Shown here: positions 9,185-14,290 of the stretch, one piece after another
How the letters are laid out: every line of letters starts with the position of its first letter
How positions within the stretch are numbered: position 1 is the first letter of the stretch
Position numbers and translations under genes: made by a program
Notes under the pieces: model-generated
What the model saw: only the letters and a program-made list of their open reading frames with translations
Database searches by the model: none
Told to the model about the DNA's origin: nothing
NCBI GenBank assembly: GCA_964354495.1
Contig: CAYHAA010000027.1
Coordinates: 1-17,998 of the forward strand
DNA length: 17,998 nucleotides
Source of the DNA: an uncultured archaeon
Lineage (GTDB): Archaea; Asgardarchaeota; Thorarchaeia; Thorarchaeales; Thorarchaeaceae
Direction: 5' to 3'

Positions 9185-12100
9185 TTGGGGCGGATAGTCC
9201 AGGAATTCCGGTCGAACGAGGTTCTAGCAGATGCAATCTACTCAGGACTATCTGCCTTGGTCAGACTATCCTACAAAAGAAAGAATGATTTGACGCACGA
9301 CTTCTATGAACAGATAAAGCGCAATTGGGAGCATGCACGTACCGAATGGAAATCTTCCAGAGAACAAGGCTCGCATGACTTCTCTTCCATCCAGAGTAGA
9401 GAGTCCATTCTGAGAAGACTGTACCTTCAGATGCTCTGGCACAGCACAGCACGATTTGGCAACAAGGAGTTCAAACGGGTATACAGCTGGAGGGAGGGTA
9501 CGATTGGGCCACTCAATGAACTGCTCAACTATATGGGCTCTCTGCTAAGAGATGTATTGGTCCCTCGGTACTATTTTCCAGACCCAGATGTATACCAAGT
9601 CAGAAGATACAAAGATGGTCGAGTGGAGATCCTACCCAAGAGCATAGCAGATACGATACCACCAGGGAGAGGTGCGAAGACCCATCAGAAGGCAGGGTAC
9701 CGTGGGAACTCAAAGAAGCCTCGAGTTCTCCTTGCACATCCAACTCTTCCCGCCCTTGACTTTTCTGACATGATTCGTACTCACCTCATAGAACTCTGTC
9801 GGCAATGCTTTATTCATGCTGTTCCTCGTCGCGAGTCACACAGATATATCAGGTTACTAATCCATCGCCTTATCCCGTTCCTCGATTGGATCTACACCCG
9901 AGGAAAAAGTGGTCGGAAGAACTTCTATCCCGACGCAGACAGAGAGCTTCGTAAGATTGTGCTTGAGATCCGGACTCACTTCAGCAATAGGAGTGGGACA
10001 AGTAAGGGCATCAGCAGACAGATAGAATCAGCTCCTTTGGATTTTGATGTTGATTCTCTCAAAGAGAGGGTCAAAATGATCACAGAATCCTCAGAGGAGG
10101 AACCTATCAGAGAGAAGGGTGAGGTCGTCCTAGACTATATCAAAAAGGGAATCATCACGGATCAAGAGGTTTCGAAATTCCTCGGAGAGATCACAAGTAT
10201 GGCACAGAGAGAGGGGAATGACTGGCATAGGGTACTACTCTCAGGATTCTGTCACCCACGATCTCTGAGAGAGGCTGTCTTTGCAGGTGACCAGTTTCTA
10301 CAGACTCCTGCTGGAATGCAATATCTTGCCGAGGTTCCTGTTGTTGGAAATCATGACGCCGGAAAAATCGACCTAGTACTCTTTGTCCGAATATTGAGAG
10401 GCGCAGGGCAATACATCTGGACTCCTGTTATGATTCTTGAAGTAAAGACCAAAGAAGGATTCAGATTCAACATCTATGGAATGCGACCTCGAACAAGGAA
10501 GAGGAATGTCTATGTCCCAGTACTTCAACCTTGGAAAGAGCCGCTCACTGAACCCGAATGGCAAGCAAATCTAGGCTCCAAGCCTCCAAAGTCCCATCTT
10601 GATCAGCTAGATGAATACGAGCGAGTGATACTCACTGAATTCAATGCCCTTGTCAACGATCCGTTCGCACCAAAGCACATCTGGAAGGGGATTGTAACTC
10701 TTGACATATCACAGGACTATGAGATAACGAAGAGAGCCTTTGACCAGCTTATTGACCAACTGGCCACGAAGCTGCTGAAGGGAGAATTCTGGGGCCAATG
10801 GAAGACACTCAAGTTTGAGAGCACAGCTTCTGTTGAACCTGTGCCGCGCATCGCCATCACAATGACGCCTGCTCAGGGTCCTATGCATCTTCTGAGAAGT
10901 ATAGTCCCGGCCAAGGCAGTGCAAGATGAAGATCCCTTCACTGAACGAGTGGAGGATGACCTCTTCTTCACTCAGTACATTTCTGTCCCCTCTTCTACAT
11001 CATCAGGCAAGAGTGCTGCATGGCTTGCCAAGAATTGGCATCTATTGAACCATCTCGCCGAGTTGGCAGATACTGCAGATTCTAGTCTGTTTCTCTTCTG
11101 GATAGACCTTCTTAGTGATTATCCTACTGAGAAAATGGCCAGCATAAGATTTGGACTTGATGCTCTCAGGAAGAGTGGACTAGTCAATCAGTCCGAGTTT
11201 GCCCGATTGAGTGGTTTTCTCAAGCGCATGCATCTTGTCAATCTTCGAGAAGAAACAGATGACCTGATTCTTGCTGGTAGCTCTTCAGGACTGAAAGACT
11301 TCCATGCCAGAATCAGATCTGCACTCCTCAAAGAATCCGGAGAGCGCCTTATCGTTGTGGATGGCTGGTCTGACCTTGAGAGTATGGTGCCAGTACATCG
11401 TAGAAACAGTCTGCGGGCAATTGAACTATCGCTGCTGCAGGTCTTGAAGGAACTGGCTTCTGAAGTGATTTGGGTTGATAGTGGTGTGAATCATCCAGAG
11501 ATGAACGAAACCTACGGTCGACCTTGTGTGAGTCCCCTGCACCATGACTCGCCGCGAAGACAACTTGTGGACGAGATAATCTGGAATCTTCCCACGGCTC
11601 CACGAGAGATGGGATGGTTGTCTCCCCAGTACGATGAGAATCGAGTCATCATTCAGGATCTCCCCATAGATAGTCAACCCTGGACAACCGTGATTCGGGT
11701 TCCACACTTGAGAGGCTGGACTCGCAAGTTCAGTGCTGCGGCAAAACGGCGTCCCTCTGATGAAGCAACTGATTACGTTGGAGCCCTGAACCAACAGCAG
11801 GACATGTATGGAAGGTCGTTTCACGGCGCCTCAATTCAGGTTCGATGTGACATGATAGGCAGAGAAACTCTGGACGTTCTTAAGGAGAGAGCATTCAGTC
11901 TGATTCCAGGCCTACTTAGACCAAGACAAGAGCAGATGGATAAGATTGAGAAGCCTGAATTCGAAGTACGACCGGTAGCCTACCATTCTGTAGATGGTTG
12001 TCGAATTCAGCCAGGTCTGACCAGTAGGCTGCATCTTGACCTGACGCAGCCGCCTCCTCATCCAAATAGATTCGGAAAACATCATCAAGGGATTCATGTT

Positions 12101-14290: not shown

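Follow-up and report, generated by a model that had tools for sequence, protein, structure and literature searches.

The window analysed here is a stretch of 17,998 nt from an uncultured archaeon of the family Thorarchaeaceae (contig CAYHAA010000027.1), and our subject is a giant gene on its forward strand, which encodes a protein of 1701 residues, together with a TnpB-like gene standing head-to-head with it. These two are the only large open reading frames (ORFs) of an element spanning approximately 7137–14289, which we interpret below as a probable aCas1–TnpB mobile element. All named homologues of the giant protein belong to Thorarchaeota or Promethearchaeota, and its neighbours in the window are archaeal or eukaryote-like housekeeping genes: prefoldin, eIF6, L18Ae, L31e, S19e, RNase P Rpr2, EMG1, a eukaryote-type topoisomerase IB (TopoIB), and a low-molecular-weight phosphatase. 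Thus, the host is an Asgard archaeon.

The giant gene is unbroken over its 1701 codons, and its TTG start point is common to the homologues, which share the N-terminal consensus MGRK..PN.VL..AIY in the alignment. Against the 91%-identical orthologue of the related genome G012 it had an overall dN/dS of 0.33 at a dS of 0.126; regional dN/dS values were 0.22–0.32 for the folded domains and 0.7–1.1 for the linkers. The gene is under purifying selection in all its folded domains. Frame, start, and selection all agree that the ORF proposed by the first-pass annotation, which was made from the nucleotide sequence alone, is real. Searches of Pfam, PADLOC, and NCBIfam with the whole 1701-residue protein recognized nothing. 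Family alignments comprised 28 relatives and, in a wider set, 111 diverse relatives down to approximately 20% identity.

The insert of 7.2 kb, consisting of tnpB and the giant gene, lies next to tRNA-Gly and has on either side a copy of a 54-nt direct repeat taken from the 3' half of this tRNA, which bears out the tRNA-island location given in the annotation. The filled site, with both genes between tRNA-Gly and the TopoIB gene, was found here and in G012. The empty site was found in related genomes: tRNA-Gly directly adjoins the TopoIB gene in G001 and G010, and EMG1 directly adjoins it in G018. Of the eight giant-family copies of this genome, three are no more than 150 nt away from a tRNA gene (for Gly, Arg, and Lys, respectively), for which a rough estimate of chance occurrence is about 2e-5. 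At three unrelated loci, L019 (~13069), L049 (10117), and L050 (10099), tRNA-like 3' ends with a T-arm of the TGGCGCC...GGTTCGAA type begin on the minus strand 17–20 nt past the giant stop codon; only the one at L050 reaches the Rfam tRNA threshold. The choice of target seems to be biased to tRNA genes, with copies tending to land about 20 nt beyond them, and the 54-nt repeat could be a long target duplication. In wetland metagenomes, only small-share contigs of a related strain were found; a joint of position 7026 to 14289 on one of them (one contig, side 36, likeness threshold 85) was weak and was rejected as unreliable evidence of an empty site.

The tRNA itself deserves a separate remark. 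The acceptor stem of the intact tRNA-Gly(TCC) is GCGACCG/CGGTCGC vs. GCGGCCA/TGGCCGC in G001, G010, and G012, two compensatory pairs being different, and the truncated tRNA half after the giant gene (14290–14335, within the second repeat copy) keeps the acceptor strand of tRNA-Gly in these relatives. The functional tRNA-Gly may have arrived with foreign DNA or may have been converted.

The product of the partner gene carries the TnpB motifs GIDLG (RuvC-I) and NADMNGAINI (RuvC-III). The canonical RuvC-II Glu is replaced in its sub-group (AIGRLKNI), and a conserved Glu is present about 55 residues further on in the motif VPE(N/A)WTS (VPENWTS here). Our partner protein also has a conserved C-terminal tail of 110 residues, rich in Ser, Gly, and Glu. 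In another sub-group, of 713 residues, EDL is retained and a long extension at the N-terminus replaces the tail. A divergent TnpB-like gene was located upstream of all eight giant-family copies in this genome, the gap being 165–256 bp where measured. The same pairing was found at nine other loci, namely in G012 and on eight contigs of other assemblies (L018–L021 and L049–L051 among them); the giant proteins of those eight contigs are 22–61% identical to the 1701-residue protein. No serine recombinase was encoded within the insert, by which an element carrying one of the IS607 type was ruled out; the two IS607-type serine recombinases of this genome are located on contigs C22 and C24.

The conserved non-coding end 3' of tnpB is a candidate omega-RNA scaffold as well as the candidate end of the element. 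The sequence GAACACAGAAGT-cgaaggtagtg-GTTCACTCA was found there at 7179–7148 on the minus strand, 99 nt past the tnpB stop codon, and the layout of a conserved T, a variable stretch of 11–14 nt, and GTTCACTCA is repeated in 10 further copies. The last ~57 nt of the element end (7148–7204) contain only two differences from G012, with more changes just past the tnpB stop codon. Rfam searches over 6900–9300 identified no known RNA family except tRNA, the single-sequence fold of the tnpB 3' region was no better than those of shuffled sequences (z 0.73), and the variable stretch showed no significant overall complementarity to the flank beyond GTTCACTCA. A second short motif, (A/G)GGTCA(A/G) or GGGTTAT, occurs 13–20 nt beyond GTTCACTCA in most copies (C6, C17, C24, and C43 in this genome; L019, L049, and L051 elsewhere). 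The bases between the two motifs could be real guide or real flank, so that the element boundary given here is provisional.

The AlphaFold model of residues 1–865, built on the 111 sequences, had a pLDDT of 89.9 and a pTM of 0.89. In an exhaustive structural comparison (VIA-align), residues 4–255 matched the catalytic alpha-helical domain of Cas1 and casposases only: 11 entries with Z scores of 8.9–12.7, led by 8flj (Z 12.7, rmsd 4.0, 177 aa), 4w8k (12.2), and 4n06 (11.5), followed by 7kft (11.2), 7mi4 (10.9), casposase 6opm (10.8), and five more. All these matches start at Cas1 residue ~90–115. Among 66 N-terminal domains, residues E73, G92, R98, N111, G118, H185, and R198 were invariant, and R77, E95, D192, and D195 were kept in at least 90%; N115 is also among the conserved residues. 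Alignment with 17 ordinary Asgard Cas1 proteins by hhalign was not significant (E 0.035, probability 1.5%); the motif register was nonetheless correct. It placed E73 on E155, the catalytic Glu of Cas1, and R98 on R180, the arginine of RRPP; N111 fell on N190, with N111-x3-N115 on PVNALISFGN, and D192-x2-D195 fell on D233-x2-E236, with D192-x2-D195-x2-R198 on LDxxExFK. Cas1 ancestry of the N-terminal domain is likely, on the basis of the modelled fold and the motif register and not of sequence statistics. The N-terminal region of about 380 residues outlined in the annotation contains this Cas1-like domain, which had been missed, as had the fixed TnpB partner of the gene.

A search of a language-model atlas with residues 1–270 gave no usable match. 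A true PF01867 Cas1 domain forms the N-terminus of three proteins of 1325–1367 residues from another Asgard family (L046–L048: G066:C5:121343-122176, G066:C4:342074-342907, and G083:C9:5285-6127), which have no detectable sequence similarity to the giant family. These G066 and G083 proteins were tried as a sequence bridge and rejected, since the family profiles do not match.

Regarding the PD-(D/E)xK nuclease, the motif E383, D396, E419-x-K421, and Q474-x3-Y478 had been positioned correctly from the start. Residues D396, K421, Q474, and Y478 were invariant in both family alignments; across the 111 relatives, E383 was conserved in at least 90%, and position 419 was E or D. In the model these residues lie on strands and helix in the order expected of a RecB-type nuclease, and the language-model clusters nearest to residues 335–545 are PD-(D/E)xK families, which is a lead only. 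No cysteine of residues 336–545 was among the invariant or at least 90% conserved columns, and the four Fe-S cluster cysteines of Cas4 were not found; because the region has no conserved cysteine, the domain is not a Cas4 in the strict sense. Altogether, this is a conserved RecB-type nuclease domain that is probably active.

The following domain, residues 590–843, is RecA-like, with Foldseek matches in the PDB (E ~1e-4) to DnaB, RAD51 paralogues, and KaiC and with VIA-align Z scores of 10–12. Its altered Walker A and Walker B motifs had already been read as those of a RecA/KaiC-type fold, and the comparisons agree. In the SSTSSGKS region, the first Gly is replaced by Ser, and S603, S606, G608, and A611 are conserved; the Walker A lysine K609 is not, being R, E, G, S, V, T, N, M, or I among relatives. 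In the second motif, LIVVDGW (residues 722–728), G727 and W728 are conserved. As the annotation had suspected, the domain is unlikely to be a motor, and the loss of the Walker A lysine speaks against one driven by ATP.

The model of the C-terminal half (pLDDT 85.7 overall) is confident from residue ~1000 on, and the long unrecognized tail, the acidic linker, and the small terminal domain that had been proposed are all seen in it. Foldseek found no match to the PDB for this half at E ≤ 0.001. Within the helical domain, residues 1003–1182 resembled nine Cas1/casposase entries with Z scores of 4.7–6.2 (VIA-align), values that do not rise above the noise for helical folds, and profile comparisons of this domain with Cas1 and with the N-terminal domain gave no support; that two Cas1-like domains form a pseudo-dimer is no more than an idea. 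The beta-rich domains (residues 1201–1585) had VIA-align matches of Z ≤ 5 only. The acidic linker (~1586–1605) forms a dip in pLDDT, and the terminal domain (~1606–1701) has an alpha/beta fold with Z ~5 to small alpha/beta domains, a score which is not diagnostic.

Table. Coordinates of the element, its genes, and the predicted domains of the giant protein (positions of the window).
Feature	Position	Strand	Details and basis
tRNA-Gly(TCC), intact	7054..7128	+	19 nt from GTTCACTCA end of element
Direct repeat, copy 1	7083..7136	+	tRNA-Gly 3' half + 8 nt
Conserved non-coding end 3' of tnpB	7148..7254	-	Ends in GTTCACTCA (7156-7148)
TnpB-like partner gene, 557 aa	7255..8928	-	Pfam PF07282/PF01385; alignment
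tnpB/aCas1 intergenic core	8940..9060	+	~99% conserved; hairpin CTGACC-n6-GGTCAG, then GTTCACTCC (8979-8987)
Giant gene, probable aCas1 type	9185..14290	+	1701 aa, TTG start; ORF calling, homologue alignment
Cas1-like alpha-helical catalytic-type domain, aa 1-275	9185..10009	+	AlphaFold model, VIA-align, conservation
RecB-type PD-(D/E)xK nuclease, aa 336-545	10190..10819	+	E383, D396, E419-x-K421, Q474-x3-Y478; conservation and model
RecA-superfamily fold, degenerate P-loop, aa 585-850	10937..11734	+	SSTSSGKS 603-610, VVDGW 724-728; Foldseek, VIA-align
Low-confidence linker, aa 866-995	11780..12169	+	pLDDT 40-73; dN/dS 0.71
Helical domain, aa 1003-1200	12191..12784	+	Invariant E1020, G1123; weak second Cas1 resemblance
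Beta-rich domains, unrecognized fold, aa 1201-1585	12785..13939	+	High-pLDDT model
Acidic linker, aa 1586-1605, and C-terminal alpha/beta domain, aa 1606-1701	13940..14287	+	Model
Direct repeat, copy 2	14290..14343	+	83% identical; begins at last base of giant gene's stop codon

The giant family was found in 47 of the 80 genomes of the same GTDB family, with 0–14 matches per genome, most of the up to 14 being diverged full-length copies. No member was found in several genomes of at least 92% completeness (G001, G010, and G018) or in 16 genomes of other Asgard families. This distribution bears on whether the protein could be a domesticated host protein, e.g., a lineage-specific factor of DNA repair or recombination with TnpB as an incidental neighbour. 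Purifying selection on all domains and the wide occurrence in the family agree with such a role, which is nevertheless highly improbable: the family is missing from those nearly complete genomes, varies from none to 14 matches, occurs in differing genomic contexts, leaves an empty site in related genomes, and is invariably paired with TnpB. Nor do all members of the lineage share one syntenic copy, as a domesticated gene would lead one to expect.

The first-pass annotation had proposed a stand-alone antiviral or restriction-type enzyme of a defence island, with its nuclease under the control of a switch that binds nucleotides and of a long tail acting as sensor. Some Asgard loci containing Cas1 may indeed be defence systems (Makarova 2020, as summarized in PMC8730458); a conserved nuclease motif beside a degenerate NTPase-like domain fits such an enzyme, and patchy spread and an island beside a tRNA gene are traits common to defence genes. 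However, PADLOC-DB 2.0 gave no family at E ≤ 1, the island holds tnpB and the giant gene only, and up to 14 matches per genome are rarely seen with defence genes but are normal for a family of transposons. The domain at the N-terminus resembles an integrase, and the strict pairing with a transposon-type nuclease gene together with the conserved element end points to mobility. A defence or restriction role is quite unlikely and unsupported for a 7.2-kb two-gene insert that is multi-copy and patchy like a mobile element.

The name aCas1 was reportedly introduced by Makarova et al. in CRISPR J in 2020. As described in a later analysis (Altae-Tran 2023, PMC10691335), Asgard aCas1–TnpB loci contain GTTCACTCA downstream of tnpB after a conserved T and a variable stretch; aCas1 is termed there a likely transposase, and GTTCACTCA is noted as resembling the start of a CRISPR repeat. 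The TnpB groups Cas1H-Asgard-1 and -2 are assigned there to aCas1–TnpB loci, citing Makarova et al. 2020 (CRISPR J). In our literature search, only this 2023 analysis joined the terms "aCas1" and "TnpB", and no experimental work was found. Every published feature that we tested was present at the giant-gene locus: an Asgard host, a TnpB neighbour, the variable stretch with GTTCACTCA, and flanking repeats. With the published loci (PMC10691335), a thorarchaeotal host, a very divergent Cas1-like protein beside TnpB, GTTCACTCA after a short variable stretch, flanking repeats, and multiple copies are shared, and nothing here contradicts membership. The aCas1-type identity is indicated because the Cas1-like N-terminal domain, the divergent TnpB gene, and the published GTTCACTCA motif occur together; the same three features contradict the earlier statement that the protein belongs to no described family. 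We consider it reasonably probable that the giant protein is the aCas1 of an Asgard aCas1–TnpB mobile element, and most likely its integrase or transposase, an assignment made by published locus features.

Several points weigh against this assignment. No sequence method ties the N-terminal domain to Cas1: Pfam PF01867 gave no match (E ≤ 1), profile searches against PDB sequences with the N-terminal domain and with residues 1–865 gave chance matches only, and hhalign did not place the invariant H185 on the Cas1 histidine. The matched domain is helical, and for such folds Z scores of up to ~13 can arise without homology. The N-terminal beta domain (beta-sandwich) of Cas1 is absent, the model opening with helices at residue 10. 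Regarding mobility, the paralogues within this genome are old (25–73% identity), and nothing points to recent bursts. A search for long flanking repeats at seven other copies was negative; such repeats were found only for this insertion and its G012 orthologue. In G012 (L016) the flanking repeat reaches 60 nt, and at the right junction (reverse-complement 8363–8422) it runs past the tRNA half through a 22-nt flank and a degenerate element end (TTAGTTAAC vs. TGAGTGAAC); tandem accretion or recombination would explain this junction no less well than a long target-site duplication would. Finally, neither a transposition event nor an excision product or RNA was observed.

If the giant protein is the integrase of such an element, its Cas1-like domain would perform DNA strand transfer, as Cas1 and casposases do, and the PD-(D/E)xK nuclease would cut or trim DNA ends, in the manner of Cas4 when spacers are processed or of the TnsA protein of Tn7. 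The RecA-like domain without the Walker A lysine would serve as a DNA-binding or assembly scaffold, probably not as a motor, and the C-terminal half may provide further contacts with DNA or protein. TnpB with its guide RNA would support persistence or homing of the element, as in IS605/IS607 elements.

A closer cooperation of the two proteins can also be envisaged. Type V-K CRISPR-associated transposons home near tRNA genes, and aCas1 and TnpB could form one RNA-guided machine: either a guided integrase, in which TnpB and its guide direct the insertions made by aCas1, often beside tRNA genes like those transposons, or an adaptive system with a single spacer, in which aCas1 would reprogram TnpB by writing anew the variable stretch at GTTCACTCA. 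The two genes stay strictly paired across deep divergence, the variable stretch of 11–14 nt lies between a conserved T and the CRISPR-repeat-like GTTCACTCA, copies insert near tRNA genes, and neither this genome nor four others of the genus contain an ordinary Cas1, all of which would suit such a machine. However, the variable stretch is identical here and in G012 although dS is 0.126; the stretch has thus not turned over within that time. Several copies carry variants of a single sequence (TTCTTnCAGTTG) instead of unrelated spacers, inspection by eye did not match the stretch to tRNA-Gly, and no array is present. We regard a single RNA-guided machine as unlikely. If it were true, the archaeal lineage closest to eukaryotes would harbour in this element a living intermediate between transposons and CRISPR. 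As a separate observation, the search for ordinary Cas1 (PF01867) was negative for this genome (97.7% complete) and for G013, G014, G015, and G017 of the same genus; 52 of the 121 sampled genomes of the phylum have one.

A mobile aCas1–TnpB element may be compared with three known systems. A Cas1-type catalytic domain as the presumed integrase is common to it and to casposons (6opm, Z 10.8). Some casposons insert at the 3' ends of tRNA genes, and their target duplications are 14–15 bp, whereas the repeat here is 54 nt. Neither a family B polymerase in the insert nor terminal inverted repeats at its ends were detected. The giant protein lacks the N-terminal beta domain and helix-turn-helix (HTH) of casposases, is five times larger, contains nuclease and RecA-like domains, and is partnered by TnpB. 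With the Cas1–Cas2–Cas4 module of CRISPR systems, including Cas4–Cas1 fusions, it shares a Cas1-like domain and a RecB-family nuclease in one protein, as well as the register E..R..N..D-x2-(D/E) of the Cas1 of CRISPR adaptation (hhalign); in contrast to this module, the element has no Cas2, CRISPR array, PF01867 match, or Cas4 Fe-S cysteines, and its Cas1-like domain comes first. TnpB elements of the IS605/IS607 type likewise have a conserved non-coding 3' end of tnpB at the element boundary; they differ in that neither a Y1 nor a serine TnpA was found here, a giant Cas1-like protein being in its place.

The surroundings of the element contain further ORFs. Between EMG1 and tRNA-Gly (4785–6846), two ORFs of 181 and 484 aa without Pfam matches were found, where G010 has only ~330 bp; the 484-aa ORF is 71% identical to its counterpart in G012, compared with ~90% for the neighbours. 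A second variable insertion site may lie here, on the side of the tRNA that faces away from the element. On the strand opposite to the tRNA half copy, and overlapping it, is a 94-codon ORF (14287–14571, minus strand) with clear TPR matches (TPR_9, E 7.6e-12); C-terminal TPR repeats also occur in some distant members of the giant family (P0055, P0206). Between the tRNA half and the TopoIB gene lies a 108-codon ORF (14490–14816, minus strand), partial copies of which, 80–97% identical, occur on seven or more other contigs and in several cases at the end of the contig; it is probably another repeat element. The TopoIB gene itself (15073–17151, plus strand; Topoisom_I_N, Topoisom_I, and Topo_C_assoc) was located beside tRNA-Gly in all five related genomes checked.

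Elements of this kind have already been described computationally in print, and the 1701-residue gene adds another member. Our analysis contributes a domain map—Cas1-like, RecB-type nuclease, inactive RecA-like, and then ~850 aa of unrecognized folds—as well as the tendency to insert about 20 nt from tRNA genes. Outside CRISPR there are few cases in which the ancestor of Cas12 travels with an integrase of the Cas1 family, and aCas1–TnpB elements are among them. The insert described here offers a clean experimental case: it has two genes, the orthologous site is empty in relatives, the catalytic-type residues are intact, and the non-coding end is conserved. If the protein were shown to integrate DNA, alone or guided by TnpB, this would bear on the origins of CRISPR adaptation and of type V effectors, and the protein could possibly become a tool.

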